A stretch of 64,000 nt of DNA, taken from positions 22,123-86,122 of the forward strand of contig JAJCZB010000041.1 of NCBI GenBank assembly GCA_029262595.1. The letters run 5' to 3'. The notes below the pieces were generated by a model that saw nothing but the letters and a program-made list of their open reading frames with translations, searched no databases and was not told the DNA's origin. This stretch comes from Candidatus Babelota bacterium (GTDB lineage Bacteria > Babelota > Babeliae > Babelales > Vermiphilaceae). Both the position numbers and the translations under genes were made by a program. Positions 2,853 to 19,362 of the stretch are shown here, in pieces (the first letter of the stretch is position 1; the number at the start of each line of letters is the position of its first letter).

Positions 2853-4025
2853 TTAACAACAAACATTAAGCCACATTCTATCCATAATATTAATCACAGT
2901 CACATCATTCGAAGTGTAATTAGTAACATACGCACGCTGGCCATCGCATGAAATAGCAATAGCACTCGGAGACGCGCCAACCACTAATACCGGGCAAAGC
3001 ACCTTATTGGTACAGATATCAATAACATTCACTGTTCCTTTACCCGCAGTTAAATCGGTGAAGTTTGGTCCAAGATAAAACGTATTATAGTTGCTTGCGT
3101 ATGCAAATCGGCCGTCTGGCGTAATAGCAATGCCTGCTGGTTGATTGCCCAAAGTAATAGTTGTTTCTACAGTATTAGAACTCAAATTCACCGCACTGAC
3201 CGTTGTCCCAGAAACCTCATTAGGCGCAATTCCTCCTGCGGTAGGGGAAAAGTTATTGCTACCAAAATTAGTTACGTAAGCAAATGATCCATCGGGGGTA
3301 ATTGCAATTGCAAATGGCCCAAAAAATCCTGTAATAGTTTTAACTACTGTATTATCACTGGTCTGTATCACACTTATCGTTCCCGTGCCCGGATTGCCAT
3401 CAACATAATTAATGACATACACAAATGCTCCATCGGGAGTAATTGCTAATGACGCAGGAGCAAGTCCCACCGTGATTGTGCCGCTAATAGTATTGGTAGT
3501 TAAATTCACTATATTCACCGTAGTGGCATTTCCGCTCCCAACGCCCGCTGGACTTCCATAATTATTAACGTAAGCAGTTTTCCCATCTGGCGTGATGACC
3601 ATCCCCGATGGCCCATCAAAACCTGTGATCGCTCCTACTACTTCATTGGTTGCAGTATCTATAATTGAGATGGTGGTACTATTACTGTTAGTGATGTATA
3701 CCCTGGTGCCATCAGCATTAATAGTTACTGTGTACGGCTCATTAAAACCAGCATCGGTTATTGATTTGGTAAGCTTATTTGTCCGCAGATCAATCACACT
3801 TACCGAACTTCCTCCGGGAATACCATTGTCCATAAAGAATGGATGATTATCATTATTCGCAATATACGCAAAACAATTATCTGGAGTAATTGCAATTCCT
3901 GCTGGACTGTTTCCTACCGGTATAGTTGCGCATGTCCTATTGCAAGCACCTGTAACAGCGATATTGAAATGGATCAGTGCTAAAAAAATGAAAATATAAT
4001 GTATAAACTTTTTTTCTACCATCAC
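2853..4025 (-). CDS. Secreted YVTN-type beta-propeller repeat protein (7 blades)
   Basis: Seven repeats of the form IAITPDG.FAYVTN: AITPDNCFAYIANN, INADGTRVYITNS, VITPDGKTAYVNNY, AITPDGAFVYVINY, AITPDGSFAYVTNF, AITPDGRFAYASNY, AISCDGQRAYVTNY. An N-terminal signal/TM segment is present. Confidence 0.75.
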   Translation of the reverse strand: MMVEKKFIHYIFIFLALIHFNIAVTGACNRTCATIPVGNSPAGIAITPDNCFAYIANNDNHPFFMDNGIPGGSSVSVIDLRTNKLTKSITDAGFNEPYTVTINADGTRVYITNSNSTTISIIDTATNEVVGAITGFDGPSGMVITPDGKTAYVNNYGSPAGVGSGNATTVNIVNLTTNTISGTITVGLAPASLAITPDGAFVYVINYVDGNPGTGTISVIQTSDNTVVKTITGFFGPFAIAITPDGSFAYVTNFGSNNFSPTAGGIAPNEVSGTTVSAVNLSSNTVETTITLGNQPAGIAITPDGRFAYASNYNTFYLGPNFTDLTAGKGTVNVIDICTNKVLCPVLVVGASPSAIAISCDGQRAYVTNYTSNDVTVINIMDRMWLNVCC

Positions 4026-4187
4026 GTATCCTCTCTCACAAAAGCGTGTAAAAATGTAACTATCTTAAAAGTTAAGTCTGCAGAGAGTCAATAACTCGAA
4101 AAAAATGATATGCATGGGCAGATTACTTGCAATCTAAAGCGACAATATATTTCACTGTCTAATAAAAAACCTTAAGGTAAAATAATC

Positions 4188-5228
4188 ATGCGTATACCCT
4201 TTTATAGTCTCATTATTAGCTTGCTTGTAAATTGTTGCGCGGCTGCTCAGTCTGAAAAATCCCTTGAACATCCCGCATTACAAAACATCAAACAAATTAC
4301 TTTTCCATCTATGGGCTTTGAAAAAGCGGGAGAATCCTATTTTTCCCCTGATGGTAAAACATTAATTTTTCAGGCGGTTCCCTCCGGAAAAAAAGGGTAT
4401 CAAATTTATAGTATTGCTATTGAAGAAGGGCAACCTCGTCTAGTAAGCACCGGCCGTGGCACGTGCACCTGCGCTTTCTTTAGACCAGATGGGAAAAAAA
4501 TTATATTTGCATCAAGCCATGATGCCCCCGATAGCGCTGAAAATAATAATCCGCAAGGATATCAGCGAGAAAATAACAACTATGTATGGGAATTTACTCC
4601 CTACATGAATATTTATGAAGCAAATCCGGATGGTTCGGATTTGAAAGCACTTACGCATGGCCCAGCGTATAAAGCCGAATGCGCTTACAGCTCAGATGGG
4701 TCTCACATTGTATACGCAAGTAATGCTACCGGCAGCATGCAACTCTATACCATGCGCGCCGATGGTTCTGATATTCAACAAATTACTCACACTGATAAGG
4801 GATACAACGGCGGCCCCTTCTTTTGCCCAAACAATAGAAAAATTATTTATCGCGCTGATTATGAAAAACAACATTATTTACAAATTTATTGTATCGATCT
4901 GCGTACAGGCCATCACCAACAAATAACTACAAATACTGCAGTCAATTGGGCTCCGTTTTGGCACCCAAGCGGAGAAGTTGTCGTTTTTACCACATCATTA
5001 CACGGCCATACCCAATATGAATTATATTTAGTACATACCAAAACAAAGAATCTTTCTCGCCTCACGAACAATTCAGGATTTGATGGGCTGGCCAGCTTTA
5101 ATAAAGACGGCACACAAATAACCTGGACCTCTAAAAGAGGGCCCGATAAAACATGCCAAATTTTTGTAGCTGATTTTGTTATGCCAGAAGCGGTATATGC
5201 ATCTAAAAAAAATAAGGACGACGTATGA
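4188..5228 (+). CDS. Periplasmic TolB-like (PD40/WD40-like) beta-propeller protein
   Basis: Signal peptide, then repeated SPDGK.LIF / RPDGKKIIFAS / SSDGSHIVYAS / NKDGTQITWTS blade motifs. Confidence 0.6.
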   Translation: MRIPFYSLIISLLVNCCAAAQSEKSLEHPALQNIKQITFPSMGFEKAGESYFSPDGKTLIFQAVPSGKKGYQIYSIAIEEGQPRLVSTGRGTCTCAFFRPDGKKIIFASSHDAPDSAENNNPQGYQRENNNYVWEFTPYMNIYEANPDGSDLKALTHGPAYKAECAYSSDGSHIVYASNATGSMQLYTMRADGSDIQQITHTDKGYNGGPFFCPNNRKIIYRADYEKQHYLQIYCIDLRTGHHQQITTNTAVNWAPFWHPSGEVVVFTTSLHGHTQYELYLVHTKTKNLSRLTNNSGFDGLASFNKDGTQITWTSKRGPDKTCQIFVADFVMPEAVYASKKNKDDV

Positions 5229-6631
5229 AAAAAATAATTTTAATTGTTTTTCTTATTTCACATACAGCATATGCAAGCAACAATCAGACGGATGACGTAT
5301 CTCCCGTTTTAGTTAATTCATCCCTTCCCTTTAAAATATCCATCGAAACTGCAGGTTTTACATTACCGGGAGGAATACACTCAGCAGCATGCGCGCAAGA
5401 TGGATCACAGTATCTCTTTATAACGGGTAGAACCAATGGATTGCATGGCTTTGATGATGGCAATAATGACTTTCCCCCATCGCTGCAAAATACAAACGTT
5501 TTTGTTGTAGATGTATGCAAGCAAACAGTAAAATTTCGTTCTTTACACGATTCTTCATCTGGGTTAACTCAAGCGCAAATTGATACTCTTTCAGTAACCA
5601 GTCCCCAATCATATCAATCTGGTAACACATTATATATTACTGGCGGCTACGGGGTTGAGTCAGATACAGGTAATTTTTCGACTAAAGATACGCTCACTGC
5701 AATTGATGTTCCCGGGCTCATTCGCTGGGTAACTAAGCCGTCCTGCGCCGCGCCCGCATGTAAATATATTCGTCAAATTTCTAATCCTGTCTTTCAAGTA
5801 ACGGGTGGGGCAATGTATCAAGTGGATCAATGCCCAACACTCCTTATATTTGGCCAAAACTTTATAGGTTTTTATACCACTTCATCAAACGGGCTTTACA
5901 CAAAACAGGTACGAAAATTCAATATTATTGATGATGGAAAATGTCTGGATGTTGCAGTTAAAGAATCCACTCTCCCTGATCCAAGTTTTCGCCGTAGAGA
6001 CCTCAACGTTATTCCAATTATAGAAACTAATTGCGGTAAAAAAACTCCTGCATTTGTAGCTCTTTCAGGGGTATTTACTCTCGATACAGGCGTTTGGACT
6101 GTTCCCGTTGAAATTACTGCAAGCGGAAATCCATCTATGGCTAACCCCGATCTTGATACCACATTCAAACAAGGTATGAATAATTATGCGTCTGCGCATA
6201 TTGAGTTACTGGCTAAAAATGGTGATATGTTTTCCATATTATTGGGCGGCCTTACGTTTGGATTTTTCGAAAATGGAACATTTAAAACCGATCCAGACAT
6301 TCCATTCACTAATCAAATAACCGCAATACAGCGCAGTAAAAAAGGGGAGTACAAACAACATCTACTGCCCGTTGAATACCCTACGATTCTATCCACCCAA
6401 TCAAATCCAGGAAACACGCTCCTCTTTGGAGCTGGAGCTAAATTTATAATCGCACCTAACGTGCCTATTTTTTCTAATGGCGTTTTGAATTTGGAAAAAA
6501 TTAAAAAACCAACCACCATCGGCTATATAGTAGGCGGCATTCAAAGCACACTTGCTAATACAAATGGACCTTCTGATTCAGCAGCATCACCTTATATTTT
6601 CAAGGTGTGCCTTACTCCTACGTGTTATTAA
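5225..6631 (+). CDS. Secreted hypothetical protein (possible propeller-like fold)
   Basis: 468-aa ORF with signal peptide MKKIILIVFLISHTAYA. ATGA overlap with the upstream TolB-like gene suggests translational coupling. I recognise no diagnostic motif. Confidence 0.45.
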   Translation: MKKIILIVFLISHTAYASNNQTDDVSPVLVNSSLPFKISIETAGFTLPGGIHSAACAQDGSQYLFITGRTNGLHGFDDGNNDFPPSLQNTNVFVVDVCKQTVKFRSLHDSSSGLTQAQIDTLSVTSPQSYQSGNTLYITGGYGVESDTGNFSTKDTLTAIDVPGLIRWVTKPSCAAPACKYIRQISNPVFQVTGGAMYQVDQCPTLLIFGQNFIGFYTTSSNGLYTKQVRKFNIIDDGKCLDVAVKESTLPDPSFRRRDLNVIPIIETNCGKKTPAFVALSGVFTLDTGVWTVPVEITASGNPSMANPDLDTTFKQGMNNYASAHIELLAKNGDMFSILLGGLTFGFFENGTFKTDPDIPFTNQITAIQRSKKGEYKQHLLPVEYPTILSTQSNPGNTLLFGAGAKFIIAPNVPIFSNGVLNLEKIKKPTTIGYIVGGIQSTLANTNGPSDSAASPYIFKVCLTPTCY

Positions 6632-9905: not shown

Positions 9906-10170
9906 TCACTTTTTGACAAAGTCACGGCCAGCACCCGATTTTAAATATCTCTCAAATCGTAATGCTTCTGATTGAGTTTGAAAGCCAAGAAACATTTTCA
10001 ATTTCGTCAGACAACCTTCGTTTGCAAAATGTCAAAATCAGCCTTACTAGTTTCATCACTTGTTGGCGTCAGCCAGGCGTAGCCCAACGGGCGAAAACTG
10101 GCATCCCAAAACCGACGATGGTAGAACTTTTGAGTCCTAAGACATCTTCTTTCATCCACTCATAATCTTG
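9906..10170 (-). pseudogene. Decayed GIY-YIG nuclease gene (small COG2827-like type), frameshifted and truncated
   Basis: The minus strand at 9906-10031 reads HFANEGCLTKLKMFLGFQTQSEALRFERYLKSGAGRDFVKK*. This matches the C-terminal ...HN.G...T...LVMFLGF.....A..FEKYLKSGSGR.F.K signature of small GIY-YIG proteins, with an internal deletion. Upstream pieces lie in other frames and no intact start exists. Confidence 0.4.
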
Positions 10171-10237: not shown

Positions 10238-10984
10238 ATGAAGCAAAACAGAATATTTTACCTTTACTTACTATTTGCCTTGAGCTTAGGCCTTACAAGC
10301 TGTTTGCCAGAAAATAGCACTTCTCAAAAGCAGCCAAATGAACAAAGTCACACTAGTCCCGAAAAACAGCAGCGCTGGCAAGCCATGGAAAAAAAAGTTG
10401 AATCATGGGGCGATGGATTAGGACTCGGCATTGATCCGGGTATAAAAAAAATGGTTACTGTTCTTAATCTACTTGGCTTTAAAACAAGACAATCATGCGA
10501 AGGACACATTGATTGGGGTTTGCCATATCCTTGGATAGACTTTGAAACCGAAAATAAGCAAATAAAGGACCTAAGCATCAAACTTCAAAGTGTTAGTACC
10601 CTAATCCAGAAAGAAGAATCTGACATCCAAAAAAAATATCCGGATTTATCATTAGGTGAAGCACTTAGAAAAGAAGAGTCACAAGATTTAAATAGTTTGT
10701 ATCAAAAAATGCGTGCTATTAATGAAAATATAGAGAAAACATCTAAATCACAACTTATGCCATTAAACAATTTAATTGAAAATTTTTATAAAAATCGGCC
10801 AACTAATACAGATCGAATAATAGCGGTCCATGAAATCAATCCCACCTTTCTCAGAATGTATAGTTTAGGGGGAGACTGGCAAATCGTTAGAGATGATAAA
10901 GAAAAAAGATCAAAGCTCAATGAATATCAGCAGGAAATGAAAGAGTTCACAGAATTTTTAACAAATTTTTATTTTAGTAAATAA
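10238..10984 (+). CDS. Lipoprotein, hypothetical
   Basis: Lipobox LGLTSC after a signal peptide. The mature part is charged and helical. No recognisable domain. Confidence 0.5.
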   Translation: MKQNRIFYLYLLFALSLGLTSCLPENSTSQKQPNEQSHTSPEKQQRWQAMEKKVESWGDGLGLGIDPGIKKMVTVLNLLGFKTRQSCEGHIDWGLPYPWIDFETENKQIKDLSIKLQSVSTLIQKEESDIQKKYPDLSLGEALRKEESQDLNSLYQKMRAINENIEKTSKSQLMPLNNLIENFYKNRPTNTDRIIAVHEINPTFLRMYSLGGDWQIVRDDKEKRSKLNEYQQEMKEFTEFLTNFYFSK

Positions 10985-11068
10985 TACTTTGACTGCTCTA
11001 GAAGCTAAAATTAGTGGCGTCCCACAGTCGACTATTTTAGAACTTTTTGAAGCAATTTTACCTATTGA

Positions 11069-12304
11069 TTATACCACTGATTTTTTGTTTATAACCCTTA
11101 ACCAATCATTTCTTCGATAAGCGTATATGTCTCTAGAAAACTCTACAATTCCCAGCTTCTCTAGATAAATAAAATATGCGCGCAAAGTTTTCCATGTCGA
11201 TGGGAGATTATTGTAAATATTATCAGGGACAAGATGTGGGTTGCGTCTGCCATATATACCCACAATTTTGACGCTCTGATGAACCTTAAAGCCAAGTACA
11301 TCTTGAAGCCAGCCATCAACATGCTTAATAAGAAACGGCTTATCTTTACGCTTAAGAACAAAATAATTATAACAAGCTGTTTGCCAAATACGCCTATCGC
11401 ATCCAAAAATCCAGTCTCCATCAGGAACATCTACATTGACAAAATTCGGTAAATTATTGAATGAAAACGATAGATATCGAGCATTATCTCTCCAAAATGG
11501 ATGTGCTTCTGCTTGTTGCTTAAATTGGGCTATAGATTCATCGCTAGACAGAATCTTTAATTCCTTGAGAGATGGCAAAAGCTGTTCTTTTCCTCTTTGC
11601 TCTATTTTTTTTCTTTTGATTTCTTCTTGCCGATACTTCTTTTCTTGTTCAAAAATCTTATTTTCTAATTCTTTTTCTAATTCAAGACCATATCTCTGGG
11701 CCTTGGTGTTATGTAGCCATCGAATGCGATTGACATCATTGATATACAACCAGAAAGTCTCCCAACTTTTGATATCTTCCGGTGTTAAATCTGATAGATC
11801 GATTTCTATGGCGGATATGTTAGCTTCGAATATTTTTAAACGCTTTTGATCTTCCACTTTATGACGGTAAAAAATTTCAATTATGAGTGGCGTACTACCT
11901 TTTTGAGCAAGTATGTCAGCTTTCATGCCATGCAGTACCATTTCTTCCTGCACAGAATCAAAATTTATAATTTCCCCATCTTTTACAACTGATTTTGGCT
12001 CAACAGAATGCCATTCTCCTCTTGAATCTTTTTTTCCTGATCTATCAATATTATACCCTGGAAGAGTTATTCGCTTTCTTTCTCTTATAATTTGTTTAGC
12101 TGCGAAATGGATGGCGCTTTCACCTTTGCATTGATTATCAATAGCATGTTTGAAGTGAGGTTGATTTTTGCTCCCCTTGTGTGCAATAAGTGAAAATCCG
12201 CAATCTGGACAGACACAATTGCAATTCCTTCCTCTTTCTACATCAGTAATATGTACAAGAATTTTGTTTTCATTAAAACCGAAAGGCAGTTTGATTGATC
12301 TCAT
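11069..12304 (-). CDS. CoiA-like protein: N-terminal Zn finger plus PD-(D/E)xK-type nuclease core, with a long unique C-terminal half
   Basis: CNCVCPDCGFSLIAHKGSKNQPHFKHAIDNQCKGESAIHFAAKQ matches the CoiA N-terminal pattern (CP.CG..L....G....HF.H......C..ES..H...K). It is followed by MKADILAQKGSTPLIIEIFYRHK (D...E-x-x nuclease-like core), a coiled coil (aa ~200-260) and an uncharacterised C-terminus. Confidence 0.6.
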   Translation of the reverse strand: MRSIKLPFGFNENKILVHITDVERGRNCNCVCPDCGFSLIAHKGSKNQPHFKHAIDNQCKGESAIHFAAKQIIRERKRITLPGYNIDRSGKKDSRGEWHSVEPKSVVKDGEIINFDSVQEEMVLHGMKADILAQKGSTPLIIEIFYRHKVEDQKRLKIFEANISAIEIDLSDLTPEDIKSWETFWLYINDVNRIRWLHNTKAQRYGLELEKELENKIFEQEKKYRQEEIKRKKIEQRGKEQLLPSLKELKILSSDESIAQFKQQAEAHPFWRDNARYLSFSFNNLPNFVNVDVPDGDWIFGCDRRIWQTACYNYFVLKRKDKPFLIKHVDGWLQDVLGFKVHQSVKIVGIYGRRNPHLVPDNIYNNLPSTWKTLRAYFIYLEKLGIVEFSRDIYAYRRNDWLRVINKKSVV

Positions 12305-12445
12305 AGAGGACTGTCCTACGTGTCTCGCTAAGCTACCTTCGTTAAAACTTACATCGCCACTGAAACTATGACGTACAAGCCGGTGGGCAACCTACTAATT
12401 TTTCTATTAAGCAGAGAATTCCTAGCTGGCTATACAAAGATCACA

Positions 12446-13009
12446 TTATAATATCTGTACAAAATGAGACCTATAAGGCCTTTTGCCGGGAAATATAAGA
12501 TTATCTATATCATGTTTGGTTGGGCAGACAGGATATATAACAAGATATATGGCATTAAATATCTTAGGTTGTAAATTCAAAAAATTATCTTTTCTCAGAA
12601 TCGCATCAAAATCTTCTCTCCAATCTAATCCATATCCCTCGACACGAACCAATAGTATTCTGTTTTTATATAGACTGGGTAAATCTCGATAAGAAGGCTT
12701 ATTTTGCTTCTTATGAATTTCGTTTAAAATTCTATTTATAGCAACTGAAATCCTATCGTCATGAATCATCAATTTGAGAGTCTTTTCATTCGCGCTTTTT
12801 GATACAGTATCAACAACATCATACACTCGTACCGACACTTCTTCGATACATAGTCCTGCGTCAAAAACAACACAATCCGGCAAGTCAAAATCATCCGCAT
12901 TCTGAGCGAAGAAAGGCTTATCAGTTATCCCAGAATAGCTCAAAAAATGATCTATGATAAATCGCTCCTGAACCCTATCAAAATTAATTTTTTCAGAATT
13001 TTTCGTCAT
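12446..13009 (-). CDS. Hypothetical protein (island gene 3)
   Basis: 187-aa ORF on the same strand as its neighbours, with an ATG start. No motif recognised. Confidence 0.45.
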   Translation of the reverse strand: MTKNSEKINFDRVQERFIIDHFLSYSGITDKPFFAQNADDFDLPDCVVFDAGLCIEEVSVRVYDVVDTVSKSANEKTLKLMIHDDRISVAINRILNEIHKKQNKPSYRDLPSLYKNRILLVRVEGYGLDWREDFDAILRKDNFLNLQPKIFNAIYLVIYPVCPTKHDIDNLIFPGKRPYRSHFVQIL

Positions 13010-13214
13010 AGCCTAAAATCCTATTCAGAAGCTATAGCTAAAACTATCTATTGAAAAAGATGAAGTAAGTTGGCGTTACTTAGTGGACGGTCTGGGCAAT
13101 AGATCAATTGAATTTGATTTCTCATTAGAGACTATGCAACGGGCCTATCGCAATTTGGGACTTGAGTAATGTTTACTTAATTCCACATTTGCTGCGATCA
13201 CCATGCATGAGACT

Positions 13215-14009
13215 TTAAATATTAATCTTATTGTTTATATAATGCATCAAATTAGCGACCTGGTAAACCAGAAAAAATGCATCTTCCATAGTTATATCGC
13301 CATCTTTATGTTTTGAGTTTTCGTTAAAATAGGAATCAATATATTTAAAAGTCTGACAAATAATACTCCTAATATCACTGGCAACTTTATTAGTTTTGAG
13401 AAGTTTTCCAAGCTCAGCAATATTAACTGCCAACCCTTTCCCGTTTTTAAATTTAAAACGTAAAAACTCTTCTAATGACCGCCTTAAACTCTCTGCAACA
13501 GAGATATATTTCTTTTCCAATAAGTTCTTATAAACTTCTATGAAGTGCTTTTTACTTTTACTATCTAGAAATGAAAAAACCGGACCAACAAGTTCTTCAT
13601 CTAGTTTTTTATTGCCAGCAGGAACAATCAAAAAAACATCATCCATCATTGTACGATAAGGCAATTTGGATAACTTTAGAGCTTCTATTATTCCCATACA
13701 ATAGGCGTAGTATTTTTTTTCACCCCCGGACCAAGGCAAATTAAAAATTAATGCTACAAGTTTAATAAACTCAAGTTCATTACTTTCTTCTTTTAATCGA
13801 GGTAAAATATATTTTGCAATCGGGGATCGCCTGTCATACTGAATTCCATAAAACTGACAAAACTCAAAACGGCCTTCTAGAGTTATATTTAAATCTATAT
13901 CATCCGGAATAACATTTAATATTCTGTTTTTAAAGGCTTCAAACGTTGATTTTCGCTCTTTAAGGCCAAATTCACGATTAAATTTTTTATCAAATTCTGA
14001 TAAATTCAC
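13215..14009 (-). CDS. Hypothetical protein (island gene 2), translationally coupled to the helicase-methyltransferase gene
   Basis: 264-aa ORF. GTG start at 14009, preceded by AGGA, lies only 8 nt after the stop of 14018-17839. Helical and Lys/Glu-rich; no convincing catalytic motif (no clear R-x4-6-H HEPN motif). Confidence 0.5.
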   Translation of the reverse strand: MNLSEFDKKFNREFGLKERKSTFEAFKNRILNVIPDDIDLNITLEGRFEFCQFYGIQYDRRSPIAKYILPRLKEESNELEFIKLVALIFNLPWSGGEKKYYAYCMGIIEALKLSKLPYRTMMDDVFLIVPAGNKKLDEELVGPVFSFLDSKSKKHFIEVYKNLLEKKYISVAESLRRSLEEFLRFKFKNGKGLAVNIAELGKLLKTNKVASDIRSIICQTFKYIDSYFNENSKHKDGDITMEDAFFLVYQVANLMHYINNKINI

Positions 14010-14017
14010 TTTCTATC

Positions 14018-17000
14018 CTAAGCTAAAACTTTTTCCTGCCTATCCAAACCAATCTCATTCATCTCTCTCTCAGATTTTAACGCTTTAATAAAAGTAAATC
14101 GATCTTTTGATTCCACATCTATCATATAAAAGCCCAATTTTCTCAGAAGCTCTTTAAACTGCTCAATGTCTTTTATTCTAGAGGTCGGCTCAGCTAGCCA
14201 TAGCCAGCCATCCAATTTAAGACAGCGTTTTGCTTCTTTGAGATAATCAACAAAATTTGTGCCCATCAAAGACAACGAAAATATTGCAGCCCCTATCGAC
14301 TCATTCTCCAAAGGCACTTGAGACATATCGCATGCAATTACGCTGTTATTGATAGCAACATGGTCAAATGAATAAATTTTGTTTTTAAGCTCTTGTGCCA
14401 GTAAAGCCTCTCCGCATCCAAAATCACCAATCACTAAATCTGGCCTTGTTTTGCACCACTTTAATGCTTCATGATTTGGGATCACTGGCCATGATTCTCT
14501 TGTTGCTCTGAATGAAGCATGGTAGTCATGCCACTCTTCAGGACTCTTTAAAAAACGCTTATGCGTATCCTGGCTACTGTCATTATTTATTTCCTGATTC
14601 ATTCTCGATAAATCGCCAATCCTCCTAAGAGGCGGTTGTTGAAAATCAGCAGATAACTCCAAAGCTATCTTTGACCGCTCTACCTCATGGATGCCACTAT
14701 TGGCTAATCGATCAAACCACTTCATACTATCTTTATGCGCTAGAGCAGCACTTCTCAAATGACCTTCGGGAATTACTCCATCGACTGCAGCATCAGCTAT
14801 GCTCTTTTTAAATTCTATTCGTTTCCATCTCGACTCACACCACGACCATCGCTCGCCATTAATTTCTGCAAACGTAAGGGGGACAATAATATCAACATTA
14901 TCTTTGATTTGACCTTGACGATAAATTCTACCGATTAGTTGTTTATACTCTGCATGCGTCCACGGCAAGCAATTAATTATTAATCGATTGCATACTTTTT
15001 GCAGACCATCAACACCCGTCCCTATACAACTCGTAGCAATTAGGATATCAACATCCCCATTGATAAATTTATCCAATCCATCTTTAGTACTTCCATTGAA
15101 TAGAGAGGCACTCCATCCTTTTTGCACAATAGCCTCTTGAAGAGCTATTTCTATTCCCTCTCTATAATGCGTATACACTATAGTCTTTGGTCGAAGTTGA
15201 TCCAAAATAAATGGCAATTTTGCCCGCGTAAGAATCCCTTCTAATTCAACCCAAGATTTGTGTTCCTTGATTTCATCAAACTGATCACTACAATCAATGA
15301 GCTCTTTTTTTAAATTGAACTGCATCTTATAATCCGGCAAATATCGAATTCCATGACTCACAAATTTCTTATACAACGCAATACAATTTGAGGGAGTTGC
15401 CAGAGTGTTCAGTTCGTCATGATAGATACCAGTGATAAGCTCTAATAACGTTTTACCCTCAAACAAATTGTTTATGACGGGTGTGGCAGACATTCCAAGA
15501 ATAGATAGGTTTAAATTTTTATCTGATGCCTCTGACAAAAAAGACGCTACAAGAATTTTTCTTTTAGATATTTTTTGCTGCACACGCTGCTTTGATTGGT
15601 GAATTTCATCAATTACAATGAAATCAATTGCACACTTTTCAATCAGTTTTTTTAACTTACTTTCTGAAGTAGACTGCTGAAAAAACTCATAATTTAAAAT
15701 AAGATATTTATTTTTTGCATCATCCGTAGTAATTCGTAAAATGGACTCTTTCGTATAAATCACACTATCAGAATAAGATCCTTTAATCTGACTTCTCCAA
15801 GTACCAATCACATTATTAGGACAACAAATAACAGTCAATTTTGAATCAATTACTCTGCTAGCCAAAATTGCGGATAAAGTTTTTCCCGCCCCAGTTCCAG
15901 ACCAATTACCAAATCTTTTTCTAGTCTTGATCTGAGAAGCAACATAGCGCTGCATAAGACCAAGTTCTTCTTTCCTTGGAAGCAATCCTGGTGGATTCTC
16001 ATTGTAACCCTCAGGAATCTTTAAATTCTTAGCACTATGATATCCATCTAAAAATAATTTTTTAACTTCCCTTGGGTATTCGCCTTCGCCTTGATATTGC
16101 TCAAGTTGCAATTGCGCTTCCTTTTCATTTCGAAAAGTATGACGCCAAATTTTTGCTACCGCTGACTTAATCAAAAAATCAACAGTTTCTGCATCAGCAC
16201 TCGCCACTATTTTGCTATCAATTGATTCGAGAATATCTTTAGTCTGAACGATTGGAAGATCTGATTCGTCAAGCTTAACTTCATTCTCCGAAAGAATACC
16301 TATCTCATCCTCATTATTGATCAACTGGTCTTTTTGTAACTCAATTAATTCAGTAAATTTTTGAGGATCACCCACAGCTTCAATCAAATCGTCTTTAGGC
16401 AATTTTCCCGAAAGAAAATTTTTAATAAAAGAAGATCCCTTACCCGTCGAATTTAGCAATCCATTCTGTTGAAATATTGCATATAGTTCTACAGGAGAAA
16501 GAGTATTTAAATAAGGCAGAAGAGAAAGAATAAACCTCCGTATCTTTTCAACTGTCCACCCAGAATTACAAAAGGGACAGCCTGTACCGGTAGCCCTCGC
16601 ACAGACAGCAGCTTTCCATATATGCTCTACATCCTTAGCACACGCCCACCATACTCTTTTTCCACTTCCTACCACAACATCAAATGGAGTCAATTTGCCA
16701 TTTTTCGATGGATGCCATTCCTTAGCAAGGTTCGGTTTTAGGGTTGCTAAACAATTAGATATGTGTACTTGTGATCCCAAGCAAATTGGACAACCTGACC
16801 CACGATAAGCCCTGTTCTTAACAGGGGCCATCCATTCATGGCTATCGTCTTTTAAGCATTGCCACCACACTTTTTTCCCACTCCCTGCAAAAATACCTTT
16901 CGGAGTTATAGAATTTTTTGTTGGATGCCATTCCTTTACGATATTTGGATAAGTTGAAAATAAAGAATTAGATAAAACAATCTTCAATCCCCTACAAATT

Positions 17001-17839
17001 GGACAGCCGTGACCTGAGGCCCTCTTCTGTATATTAGCTTGCCATTCATGATCGGAGCCTTTTGAGCATTTCCACCAAAATTTAGCTTTGCCCCCCCCAA
17101 AAACACCCTCAGGCAATAAGTTCCCATTTTTAATAGGATGCCACTCATTTGCTAAAAATGGATGCTTACTTGATAAAGAATTGGTTACACTTACTCTTTT
17201 TCCATCACAAAACGGACAGCCTGATCCTGCACGGCTACGCTCAACAGCCTTTTGTCTCCATTCATGATCTGGCCCCTTAGAACACTTCCACCAAATATAT
17301 TGATTACTTCCAGCTCTAACCTTGTCTGAAAACAGTCCTTTATTTTTTGTAGGATGCCATTCCTTTAAAAGGCCTAAATGAGTAACTGATAAGGGTGCTT
17401 TATGACATTTTGGGCAACCACGATAAGAGCCATCTTTTCTTATATGAGAAATAATAGAAGCTTTCCACTCATGATCAACATCACATCGCCACCAATAAAG
17501 TCTTTTACTTCTAGATCCAACCACATCCTTTGGAGTTAAAGGAAAATTTTTTTTGTAATGCCATCGCTTAGCTAAAATGGGATGAAGCGTCAACAAACTA
17601 TTGGTTTTAGATAATCGATAATTAATACAAAAAGGACATTTTGAATTAGCCTTTGCACGATAAGCAACAGTATTCTGCCACACATGATCATCAGATACAG
17701 GGCATAACCACCACACATTACGATTAGTGTTTGCGATTAATTTAGATGCGTATAGGTCACCATTCTTAACAGGGTGCCATTGTTTAGCAATATGAGGATG
17801 AGTTTCTATCAATGATTGTTTTTTCGATTGCTTCTTCAT
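14018..17839 (-). CDS. 1273-aa fusion: 6x treble-clef zinc-ribbon repeats + SF2 (DExH, SNF2/DEAD-like) helicase + C-terminal Rrp8-like SAM-dependent methyltransferase
   Basis: Six repeats of WHP.KN...(V)WW.C...H.W......R..G.GCP.C (aa 12-424). Helicase motifs are GTGAGKT (I), CPNNVI (Ia), VIDEIHQSK (II), MSATP (III), [14 protein letters not shown] (V) and [11 protein letters not shown] (VI). Methyltransferase blocks are [36 protein letters not shown] and [15 protein letters not shown]. Confidence 0.85.
   Translation of the reverse strand: [1273 protein letters not shown]
14075..14557 (-). other. Rrp8-like (Methyltransf_8-type) class I methyltransferase domain of the fusion protein (aa ~1095-1255)
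   Basis: Block-by-block resemblance to eukaryotic Rrp8/nucleomethylin as I remember it: YH..F......WP, DFGCG, CDM.QVPLE.ES, F.LSLMGTN, EA.R.LK..G.L..AE..SR, LGF. No (D/N/S)PP(Y/F/W) DNA amino-methyltransferase motif. Confidence 0.65.
14885..15967 (-). other. SF2 helicase core domain of the fusion protein (aa ~625-985)
   Basis: Walker A GTGAGKT at aa 648-654, DEIH at aa 744-747, SAT at aa 784-786, GRIYRQGQ at aa 970-977. Confidence 0.8.
16568..17806 (-). repeat. Six tandem, diverged ~68-72-codon zinc-ribbon repeat units inside the fusion gene
   Basis: The conserved Trp of the W(H)P.KN motif falls at aa 21, 93, 161, 233, 304 and 375. Each unit ends in a C-P-x-C knuckle, with the H.W element 16-20 residues (about 18) before it. 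Confidence 0.8.
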
Positions 17840-17925
17840 AATGTTTCAATATGCCTTATACTGGCGTTTTGAGCAAGTCAAAGAGCCTCATAAAAGGACT
17901 TTTGCTTCTTTGCAATCATTCCCCG

Positions 17926-17954
17926 TTGCCATATACACCCATCCCCCCTATACT
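17926..17954 (+). promoter_or_regulatory. Candidate sigma70-type promoter facing away from the island operon
   Basis: TTGCCA (17926-17931), a 17-nt spacer, then TATACT (17949-17954). It would drive rightward transcription into the structured non-coding region. Confidence 0.35.
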
Positions 17955-17960
17955 ATTCCT

Positions 17961-18554
17961 CATTCAAATAAAGCATTCCCATACGGCTTCGCATAACCTG
18001 TCCTTCGTAGTTTTAACGAAGTAGGAAGCTACGCCGTACACGCAAAGGAAGATCATGGCAGTATTCACAATCACATCCTTATATTGGCCTCTGGGCGCAC
18101 CCGTCTTCGCTCTAGCGAGCTTCTTCGGGCTACCGCAGCCAGCAATGCTTTTAGAGCAACGCTAAGATCAGCTGCCCAATTTCAATATCTAAATCCTTAC
18201 TTAATAAGTATCCTGAAAAATCCAATAACTTTCGCCGTAGCTTTCAAGCAAAGGCGAAATATGGAGAATGCTATGACCTTATTCATTCAATACTATCTCC
18301 CGGGTGCGCCCGAGAGATAATCTCTTAAAATCACTGTTCAATAATTTTCGTATTTTTATTATCTGAGATTTATATGGTTAAAAACCGCGTGGTGGTTTTG
18401 ACCCTCGATGATTACAGGAGAATGGCTTCTGCCTTTGCTGTTTTCGTGCGCGTTGATACACGAAGAAAAGCGGCAAAAAAATCAAACAGGAAATCAAAAC
18501 CTAATGACGATAAGAAGGCCCGTAGTCCATCTGGATTACGAGCCTTTCTTTTTT
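17961..18554 (+). ncRNA. Candidate large structured non-coding RNA, class unknown
   Basis: The region is locally GC-enriched. There is a nested hairpin at 17982-18038. A 15-bp long-range helix pairs 18089-18103 with 18301-18316. A 7-bp hairpin pairs 18230-18236 with 18253-18259. Another hairpin lies at 18381-18399. A strong terminator ends the region at 18515-18554. The ORFs here run through these structures. Confidence 0.35.
18515..18554 (+). terminator. Rho-independent terminator
   Basis: AAGGCCCGTAGTCC-ATCT-GGATTACGAGCCTT forms 13 pairs (including one G-T wobble) with one mismatch, followed by TCTTTTTT. Confidence 0.6.
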
Positions 18555-18615
18555 CCCACGTTCCTTTATCCTGTACTCATCAAAGAGGACCACCCTCTCT
18601 TAATTACTAACTTTT

Positions 18616-19100
18616 TTATGAAAGTAATTTCTGTATTATCTGCGTAATTTTTTCAATCGATAGCTCTATAGTTTTCAAATCATTAATGAGCAGTGCTTTC
18701 TTGTGTAGGTTTATTTGATCTTGCAATGTTTTTCTTTGCCAGAACCACAATTGCTTTGAATCTTTCACCATATCACTTGCTTGATCTATTAACTCTTCAA
18801 GCAGCCTCTTTTTATCAATAATTAACCGAGTGCTTTCATCCTCTTTTTCATGCTGCTTTGCATTTTCAACTATAGCATTAATGTTATCTGATGAGAGCGC
18901 ACTGCGATTGGTTATTATTATACCCTTCTTTTCTCCTGTGGATTCTTCTTGAGCAGTGACTTTCACAATACCATTCGCGTCTACCGCAAAAGTGATTTTA
19001 ATTTGAGGAACACCTTTAGGCATCGGTGGAATTCCTGAAAGCGAAAAATCTCCTAATAATAAATTGTCTTTTGCAAATTGTAGAATCTTCGGATGAAGTA
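18616..19100 (-). pseudogene. Truncated Hsp70/DnaK: only the distal substrate-binding domain and helical lid remain
   Basis: LLGDFSLSGIPPMPKGVPQIKITFAVDANGIVKVTAQEESTGEKKGIIITN.SALSSDNINAIVENAKQHEKED aligns to the DnaK region L.[44 protein letters not shown].DAE. No ATG, GTG or TTG start lies between it and tRNA-Glu. The track ORF only stays open because it reads through the tRNAs. Confidence 0.6.
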
Positions 19101-19286: not shown

Positions 19287-19362
19287 TGGTGAGCCGCGTT
19301 GGATTCGAACCAACGACCCACAGCTTAAAAGGCTGTTGCTCTACCAACTGAGCTAGCGGCTC
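19287..19362 (-). tRNA. tRNA-Lys (anticodon UUU), CCA encoded
   Basis: The reverse complement is GAGCCGC-TA-GCTC-AGTTGGTA-GAGC-A-ACAGC-CTTTTAA-GCTGT-GGGTC-GTTGG-TTCGAAT-CCAAC-GCGGCTC-A-CCA, a perfect 76-nt cloverleaf. Confidence 0.92.

Follow-up and report, generated by a model that had tools for sequence, protein, structure and literature searches.

The window analyzed here is a 64,000-nucleotide stretch of DNA from a Candidatus Babelota bacterium (contig JAJCZB010000041.1), and the element in question is a group of four genes, g1 to g4, that lies beside a tRNA-Glu gene. The original prediction, which was made from the letters of the window, describes four co-oriented minus-strand genes with gaps of 8, 205, and 141 nt (g1-g2, g2-g3, and g3-g4, respectively), a layout that is reproduced in the list of open reading frames (ORFs). 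Each of the four genes is full length compared with its own homologues. The region is a variable island at the tRNA-Glu gene, a mosaic of independently mobile genes, and the families of g1, g2, g3, and g4 are independent of each other.

On the coding strand, the genes of MgtE and MscS are followed by tRNA-Lys, tRNA-Glu, a fragment of an Hsp70 gene, about 780 nt of noncoding DNA, and then g1 to g4. A fifth gene, g5, is located beyond g4 on the opposite strand. The features are given below in this order. Labels such as L001, L085, and L096 denote the stretches fetched from relatives and compared with the window.

19287-19362, minus strand: tRNA-Lys(UUU), found by ARAGORN and Rfam; first member of the tRNA pair that marks the proximal edge of the island, with 97% identity to its counterpart in the syntenic relative L090
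19104-19181, minus strand: tRNA-Glu(UUC), found by ARAGORN and Rfam; attachment point of the variable island, directly followed by other cargo in L085 and L090
19092-19120, minus strand: copy 1 of a direct repeat, consisting of the tRNA-Glu 3' end and 12 nt of flank (TCCCATTAGGGACGCCATCTTACTTCATC)
18616-19083, minus strand: C-terminal Hsp70/DnaK fragment of 155 aa (Pfam HSP70, E = 8.5e-29, profile positions 442-593 of 599), part of module A
17840-18615, minus strand: structured noncoding stretch of ~780 nt upstream of g1, judged by its folding compared with shuffles
14018-17839, minus strand: g1, 1273 aa, with six zinc ribbons, a superfamily 2 (SF2) helicase, and an Rrp8-like S-adenosylmethionine (SAM) methyltransferase
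16562-17839, minus strand: g1 residues 1-426, six DUF4379 treble-clef zinc ribbons (Pfam, E = 1e-99, six stretches)
14870-15952, minus strand: g1 residues 630-990, SF2 (DExH) helicase core (ResIII and Helicase_C)
14066-14602, minus strand: g1 residues 1080-1258, Methyltransf_8 domain of the Rrp8/NML type (PF05148; PDB 2zfu)
13215-14009, minus strand: g2, 264 aa, GTG start, PDC-S32-like, with a C-terminal HEPN-fold four-helix bundle
13059-13087, minus strand: copy 2 of the direct repeat (tRNA-Glu 3' end and flank, 23/29 identical), the distal border of module A between g2 and g3
12446-13009, minus strand: g3, 187 aa, a near-orphan with no recognizable domain
11069-12304, minus strand: g4, 411 aa, with a CoiA_N-type C2H2 zinc finger, a PD-(D/E)xK-like core, a coiled coil, and a C-terminal helical domain
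11015-11047, minus strand: 33-nt island repeat between g4 and g5, its 3' end (GGGACGCCA) equal to the tRNA-Glu 3' end
10238-10984, plus strand: g5, 248 aa, with a lipoprotein-like N terminus (LTSC), flanked by both 33-nt repeats; module C
10099-10131, minus strand: 33-nt island repeat, distal copy, with which the island probably ends and homology to L085 resumes

The island at tRNA-Glu and its repeats

The GC content is 0.34-0.37 from ~9 to 17 kb compared with ~0.40 around. The second copy of the 29-nt direct repeat agrees with the first in 23 of 29 positions, and block-shuffling the island 2000 times never produces a match as good. Because the two copies bracket the Hsp70 remnant, the noncoding stretch, g1, and g2, this segment (module A) resembles an integrated element, with g3 and g4 lying outside of it.

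Three relatives hold three different cargos at one tRNA-Glu site. L090 has MgtE, tRNA-Lys, and tRNA-Glu in common with the window; after tRNA-Glu, it encodes a serine recombinase, a g2 homologue (45% identity), and a type II restriction-modification pair of an N6_N4 methyltransferase and an MvaI_BcnI enzyme. In L085, which contains the closest relative of g4 (89% identity in amino acids and 92% in nucleotides), tRNA-Glu is followed by three unrelated genes and then by g4. Homology of L085 to the window starts at 12382, inside the g3-g4 gap, and g1 to g3 are absent.

The region thus shares with tRNA-linked or defense islands built by successive integrations the tRNA border, the low GC content, the direct repeat of a tRNA 3' end, the differing cargo of relatives, and, in the relative L090, a serine recombinase at the same site. 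It differs from them in that the window's island holds no integrase and in that single genes are bracketed by an additional repeat of 33 nt (AAAAGTTCTAAAATAG...GGGAYGCCA). The last 9 nt of this repeat are the 3' end of tRNA-Glu, and in the window it brackets g5, which has no family match in Pfam, PADLOC, NCBIfam, or PHROGs. Full copies occur in L085 at 4740-4772, after the g4 homologue, and at 12044-12076, and partial copies at 1525-1551, 2093-2123, and 3079-3094 of the same locus. Further copies are located upstream of g2 in L088 (281-313) and upstream of g1 in L096 (49-81). Some copies run on for ~45 nt and exhibit a GCCAG...CTGGC symmetry, and the 5' half of the repeat (AAAAGTTCTAAAATA) also follows at least one ordinary chromosomal gene (2213-2228). 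The 33-nt repeat may represent the scar of an attachment site, mark the border of a cassette, or belong to the intergenic repeats specific to this lineage. An integron-like cassette array was considered and rejected as unproven, since a GTTRRRY/RYYYAAC core is missing from the repeat and since an ordinary gene, too, is followed by the 5' half.

Within module A, the Hsp70 fragment is a gene remnant. The N-terminal part of the protein is not present beside it, and the fragment does not occur at this position in L085 or L090. The adjacent noncoding stretch (17840-18620) folds with a z-score of -6.25, and none of 20 shuffles folds as well. Rfam yields only a sub-threshold match to RAGATH-30 at 18294-18359, and blastn against plasmids and phages is negative. 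The stretch is overlapped by two short ORFs of the plus strand (18084-18320 and 18374-18610), neither of which is convincing, and neither L082 nor L096 has it upstream of its g1 homologue.

Independence of the four gene families

The original prediction expected the four genes to recur as neighbors across genomes. For g1, 80 loci with flanks of up to 10 kb in both directions were taken from species genomes in which a homologue is encoded. None of them holds a homologue of g2, g3, g4, or g5 in tblastn searches, even at E = 10, and clustering of all ORFs that flank g1 homologues reveals no partner shared across phyla. The loci found through g2 and g4 likewise do not contain the other genes. In L088, with the closest relative of g2 (77% amino acid identity), only positions 13208-14022 are common to the window, and g2 has other neighbors and no g1 beside it. 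In L096, with the closest relative of g1 (76% identity in amino acids and 84% in nucleotides), positions 14014-16583 are common, and a gene for a transmembrane protein follows instead of g2.

The homology tracts of L096 and L088 meet at the g1 stop codon in a TAGGATA microhomology. The g1/g2 junction is a recombination joint. It reads GCT TAG-GATAGAAA-GTG, with the AGGA overlapping the stop codon of g1. The 8-nt gap and the AGGA-GTG arrangement, on which the proposed coupling of g1 and g2 was based, are present, but the AGGA ribosome-binding site is part of the leader of g2 itself, which is kept in L088 where g1 is missing.

These findings bear on the idea that g1 to g4 are the four components of a single new surveillance system akin to restriction-modification, DISARM, or BREX. 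The genes are contiguous and co-oriented, they supply a helicase, a methyltransferase, and a nuclease, and no named system matches them. They do not co-occur in ~95 related loci, however, the repeat derived from the tRNA-Glu 3' end splits the cluster, the g2-g3 and g3-g4 gaps are wide, and L085 keeps g4 without g1 to g3. One system of four components is very improbable, and the original claim of a single functional unit is not upheld for four families that have no conserved neighborhood, a lack that the original prediction itself had named as grounds for refutation. The triad of helicase, methyltransferase, and nuclease, which had been likened to that of known defense systems, is judged an accident of adjacency. 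The four-gene unit is not worth pursuing, and an experiment on the entire cloned operon would only address this chance adjacency.

The expectation that no named system, or only generic profiles, would match is borne out, since PADLOC and NCBIfam return only partial helicase matches for g1. The best of these is DrmD, an SNF2-like helicase of class 1 DISARM (NF038317, 33 bits compared with a cutoff of 610), which aligns with the C-terminal lobe of the g1 helicase. The match covers only ~100 residues, the methyltransferase of g1 is of the Rrp8 type and has no DPPY motif, and no match to DrmA, DrmB, or DrmC is found among the five island proteins. As for type I/III restriction-modification and BREX, BrxH matches the Helicase_C lobe of g1 only (E ~1e-5), and g2 to g5 give no matches to specificity, PglZ, or BrxC partners. 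On the defining features tested, membership fails for DISARM, BREX, type I/III restriction-modification, and CoiA.

The cluster is most probably a low-GC, decayed island of ~9 kb (~10.1-19.1 kb) at tRNA-Glu that accumulates unrelated conflict genes and does not form one machine. It would consist of three modules: module A (13.09-19.10 kb), with the Hsp70 remnant, the structured noncoding stretch, g1, and g2 within the 29-nt repeat; module B, with g3 and g4; and module C, with g5. The locus is also a clear small example of a tRNA-linked hot spot that swaps single-gene cassettes among close relatives.

Genes g2, g3, and g4

Pfam matches neither g2 nor g3, and both had been listed as unknowns. 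This holds for g3 but not wholly for g2, which matches the PADLOC single-gene candidate PDC-S32 with its residues 122-261 (E = 3.8e-10, aligned to positions 91-232 of the 237 in the profile; curated cutoffs are not part of this library). The g2 homologue of L090 matches the same profile at 2.4e-13. In the AlphaFold model of g2 (predicted local distance difference test, pLDDT, of 89), the C-terminal part forms a four-helix bundle, the top Foldseek matches of which are the HEPN structures 2hsb and 2q00 (probability 1.00, TM(target) 0.62-0.66). R176, R177, E180, E181, K233, H234, and D236 are invariant. More distant homologues adjoin genes of type II restriction-modification, MmeI/Eco57I, GmrSD, and NERD. 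By its profile match, its bundle, and the restriction-modification islands that its homologues occupy, g2 resembles PDC-S32 (a candidate not validated by experiment, as far as the libraries show) and the HEPN abortive-infection proteins. Gene g2 is a separate, independently mobile single-gene module of the PDC-S32 type with a HEPN fold, and it would act as an RNase of the abortive-infection type.

Gene g3 has no match in Pfam, PADLOC, NCBIfam, or PHROGs, and its family numbers no more than 8 clusters in a set of 1.84 billion representative proteins. An exact look-up of its sequence gives only a 933-bp contig of the same organism, and one of g1 gives no record. Gene g3 is a near-orphan and probably a passenger gene.

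Gene g4 had been described as a CoiA-like PD-(D/E)xK nuclease. Pfam returns only sub-threshold matches to CoiA_N (23.6 bits compared with a cutoff of 26.3) and to DUF7828. Within the family, CoiA_N matches 35 of 36 members at E <= 0.01, whereas CoiA_C matches 1 of 36, and the nuclease-domain family of CoiA is absent from the Pfam matches. C32, C35, H50, and H53, which form the zinc finger, are invariant. D130 and E143 are invariant as well, and H148 and K149 are present in at least 90% of the sequences; together with E62, H66, and K70, they fit a restriction-endonuclease-like site. The model of g4 has a pLDDT of 89, and its top Foldseek matches are all nucleases of this fold (Bax1, RecU, HincII, McrC, and Hjc). 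Hence, the zinc finger appears CoiA-like as described, but the CoiA nuclease domain is unmatched, and the putative nuclease fold is read from D130, E143, and these weak Foldseek matches. CoiA is a competence D-loop resolvase reported only in Bacillota (bioRxiv 10.1101/2024.02.06.579203). The g4 family appears to share with it the CoiA_N zinc finger and a conserved acidic/lysine motif on a putative restriction-endonuclease-like core, and differs from it by occurring in Legionella, Berkiella, and similar bacteria, in a conjugative element or in islands. By sequence, g4 appears like CoiA in its zinc finger only. It is probably a zinc-finger DNA-processing nuclease with a restriction-endonuclease fold that is typical of mobile elements.

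One g4 homologue adjoins AbiEii. The homologue of L. pneumophila (L111-L113) belongs to a conjugative element, in which it has an ArdC/Toprim gene on one side and the relaxase on the other. The element also has genes for an SNF2/DEAD helicase of 943 aa and, next in order, an N6_N4 DNA methyltransferase, a separate pairing of helicase and methyltransferase.

Another explanation of the region is a decayed integrative or conjugative element, the genes of which would serve the element itself and not the cell, with g1 as an anti-restriction or anti-defense helicase-methyltransferase and g4 as a DNA-processing nuclease of the transfer module. Phage P1 DarB, a methyltransferase-helicase, is an analogue of g1 in this role. 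The position of the L. pneumophila g4 homologue in a conjugative element that also has a helicase and an N6_N4 methyltransferase, together with the tRNA attachment and the repeats of the window, would fit, as would several traits of g1: homologues occur on a plasmid mobilizable by MOBP and on large viral contigs, and residues 874-1074 align at E = 3e-35 with PHROG 62 (a long phage profile labeled "DNA helicase"). However, full-length g1 is found in none of 50,697 phage genomes and on only 3 of 72,556 plasmids (one of them the MOBP-mobilizable plasmid), where it is named merely "zinc-ribbon domain-containing protein." The window's island contains no transfer, replication, or integrase genes, and g1 homologues are mostly chromosomal and lie beside defense genes. 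A decayed element of this kind has a slight chance of being correct.

The g1 family

The description of g1 as a fusion of zinc ribbons, a helicase, and an Rrp8-like methyltransferase stands, as Pfam and the PDB entry 2zfu agree and all six ribbons are found. The six CPxC pairs of the DUF4379 ribbons are located at residues 68, 142, 208, 279, 350, and 421. In the helicase, for which ResIII and Helicase_C score above their Pfam cutoffs, motifs I (GTGAGKT), II (DEIH), III (SATP), and VI are invariant in an alignment of 13 homologues, and profiles of PDB structures give marginal matches only, to Hel308, XPB, Slh1, and similar proteins. The C-terminal domain matches Methyltransf_8 with 149.4 bits (cutoff 27) and human RRP8 (2zfu) at E = 2e-36 with 38% identity. 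SAM motif I, IGDFGCGEA, spans residues 1137-1145, wherein G1138, D1139, F1140, G1141, C1142, and G1143 are invariant in the 13 homologues. A scan of g1 for the (D/N/S)PP(Y/F/W) motif is negative; the methyltransferase is, as predicted, Rrp8-like and devoid of the DNA amino-methyltransferase motif.

Rrp8 (nucleomethylin) is a eukaryotic rRNA methyltransferase that produces 1-methyladenine (m1A). Gene g1 resembles it throughout the catalytic domain, of which the DFGCG SAM motif and the CDM-QVPLE-ES segment are part. The difference is one of context: Rrp8 is a stand-alone nucleolar enzyme, whereas the domain of g1 is fused to a helicase and six ribbons and belongs to a prokaryotic accessory island. 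The only solved DUF4379 relatives are mt-SAF33 and mS66, proteins or assembly factors of the kinetoplastid mitoribosomal small subunit, which match g1 residues 62-428 (window 16556-17656). Both accessory domains, the methyltransferase and the zinc ribbons, thus have solved relatives that act on rRNA.

The family comprises at least 2290 proteins in at least 314 species genomes of bacteria and archaea, with 40-75% identity. It occurs in Chlamydiota, Dependentiae, Legionellales-like bacteria, cyanobacteria, Planctomycetes, Verrucomicrobia, Myxococcota, Chloroflexota, and archaea. The homologues are usually solitary. Pfam, NCBIfam, PADLOC, and PHROGs hold no functional description of this architecture beyond domain names, nor does the literature searched, and two Aravind-lab surveys do not mention the family. 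Gene g1 is, hence, a member of a widespread family without functional annotation that tends to sit among anti-phage genes.

Such a spread argues against g1 being a secreted effector that methylates rRNA or other RNA of a host (amoeba) in an intracellular lifestyle. The best matches of g1 do belong to Dependentiae, Simkaniaceae, Parachlamydiaceae, Babeliales, and Berkiella, and the resemblance of its methyltransferase to human RRP8 and of its ribbons to mitoribosomal proteins would suit a host target. The family is equally present, however, in free-living cyanobacteria and Planctomycetes, in Verrucomicrobia, Myxococcota, and archaea, as well as on plasmids and viral contigs; g1 lies in a variable island beside a HEPN gene, and no secretion signal or linkage to a secretion system is seen. 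The chance of a host effector is next to negligible. Herewith the host-RNA reading of the original prediction is disfavored, whereas the other two survive in part: from the modification-dependent defense island the defense-island context is kept and the four-gene system is given up, and inert cargo from horizontal transfer is partly right in that the cargo was horizontally acquired.

Among the genes that immediately follow g1 homologues are those of Dsr1 (PADLOC, E = 0), PDC-S39 (7e-186), FRG/PDC-S15, NERD, DUF5677, and several transmembrane proteins. In 13 Myxococcota loci (L061, L063-L069, L071, L073, L076, L079, and L080), the constant neighbor is instead located immediately upstream and is an MmeI-like type IIG enzyme of ~1050-1090 aa (PADLOC REase_MTase_IIG, E = 1.6e-219; also DrmMI, the adenine methyltransferase of class 1 DISARM, 1e-67). 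Because the outer flanks of these 13 loci are unrelated, the pair appears to move as a unit and is a candidate two-gene module specific to Myxococcota. No MmeI-like gene occurs anywhere in the window.

In one of these loci, L076, a gene for an AlkB-like 2OG-Fe(II) oxygenase (11767-12348; PF13532, E = 8e-25) begins 10 nt past the g1 homologue; it is seen in this locus only. AlkB enzymes remove 1-methyladenine. The position of such a gene next to a methyltransferase of the Rrp8 (m1A) type is suggestive, as it fits a toxic methyl mark that needs to be reversed.

Within the island of unrelated conflict genes, g1 would be an autonomous accessory gene. A role in defense, the chemistry of methylation, and the target are presumed from its domains and its setting. 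The zinc ribbons would hold a nucleic acid, along which the ATP-driven helicase would translocate or which it would unwind, and the Rrp8-like domain would then methylate exposed adenines, by homology at N1 and most likely in RNA. The resulting m1A mark would block base pairing and thereby disable translation or replication of an invader or of the cell itself. In the fuller form of this proposal, which is put forward tentatively and with low confidence, the family constitutes a new kind of immune or conflict effector. It would be driven along nucleic acid by ATP and, without cutting, place base-pair-blocking m1A on the RNA of an invader, on rRNA, or on single-stranded DNA, either alone or with an exchangeable partner. 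Such partners would be HEPN-fold, transmembrane, NERD, or SIR2 proteins downstream and the MmeI-type enzyme upstream in Myxococcota.

Several points weigh against g1 as a solitary, RNA-directed gene of such an island. In the chlamydia-/Dependentiae-like clade, a co-directional gene is very often located 2-30 nt downstream of g1. The three closest relatives of g1 have a common downstream transmembrane partner (39-47% identity), which indicates that a two-gene unit exists in at least that subclade, with g2 in the same slot. The repeats of module A enclose g1 and g2 together, so that joint arrival or co-transcription is possible. The presumed N1-adenine and RNA chemistry has its one source in the homology to Rrp8, whereas the pairing with MmeI in Myxococcota suggests DNA; this pairing and the AlkB-like neighbor in L076 may keep DNA or single-stranded DNA in play as the target. 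Of the ORFs that neighbor g1 homologues, ~11 of 130 match PADLOC at E <= 1e-10, a count made without a matched control and hence supporting evidence only. The assignments of g2 and g4 have weak sides, too: the Foldseek E values are only 0.04-0.2 for g2 and at least 0.06 for g4, and the canonical Rx4-6H motif is absent from g2, which has N-x4-H instead (N229 and H234), with R176 and R177 on another helix. Finally, no integrase or recombinase is found among the ORFs of the window's island.

According to the main rival explanation, g1 is the conserved sensor and motor and the next downstream gene the exchangeable effector of a two-gene system, with g3 and g4 unrelated. Gaps of 2-30 nt to a co-directional downstream gene are found in the window, L001, L003, L031, L050, L052, L055, L076, L082, L083, and L096. 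The downstream proteins (HEPN-fold, transmembrane, NERD nuclease, FRG, SIR2/Dsr1-like, and DUF4209) cover the usual repertoire of effectors of modular defense systems. Moreover, the transmembrane partner is kept in three different genomic contexts, and the switch from it to g2 falls exactly on the stop codon of g1, within the repeats that enclose both g1 and g2. On the other hand, most g1 homologues outside the chlamydia-/Dependentiae-like clade have no close co-directional neighbor, and Dsr1, PDC-S39, PDC-S15, and PDC-S32 are each catalogued as a system of a single gene on its own. Homologues of g2 are found without g1, compact genomes give tight spacing by chance, and the conserved partner in Myxococcota is an upstream restriction-modification enzyme rather than a downstream effector. 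The two-gene system is accordingly considered unlikely, and the accumulation of unrelated conflict genes at tRNA-Glu is the preferred explanation of the cluster.

What merits pursuit is the g1 family. It is highly conserved and horizontally mobile, it combines an Rrp8-type methyltransferase, to our knowledge otherwise known as a eukaryotic rRNA m1A enzyme, with a helicase and a zinc-ribbon array, and its members are repeatedly found next to known anti-phage genes and, within a single phylum, next to a type IIG restriction enzyme. The novelty thus consists of an unstudied helicase-methyltransferase family with an unusual type of methyltransferase in a known kind of setting. If g1 indeed served defense or counter-defense by base methylation, the mechanism would be one not yet among the systems in the searched libraries.

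The N-terminal part of the protein is variable within the wider family. Ten large viral contigs of IMG/VR carry the g1-type helicase-Methyltransf_8 core with other N-terminal repeats. Among them, L100-L107 (16-379 kb, GC 0.25-0.40) encode proteins of 1166-1409 aa with N-terminal arrays of INT_rpt or Zn_ribbon_HMPTM; these contigs may be jumbo phages, giant viruses, or mis-binned host DNA. Since the arrays vary among relatives of g1, the conserved unit is the helicase together with the Rrp8-like methyltransferase. In L082, which contains the closest g1 homologue on a long contig, this homologue has three ribbons fewer than g1. Adjacent to it and in divergent orientation, a 731-aa protein (3966-6158, minus strand in the locus) consists of DUF4379 repeats alone.

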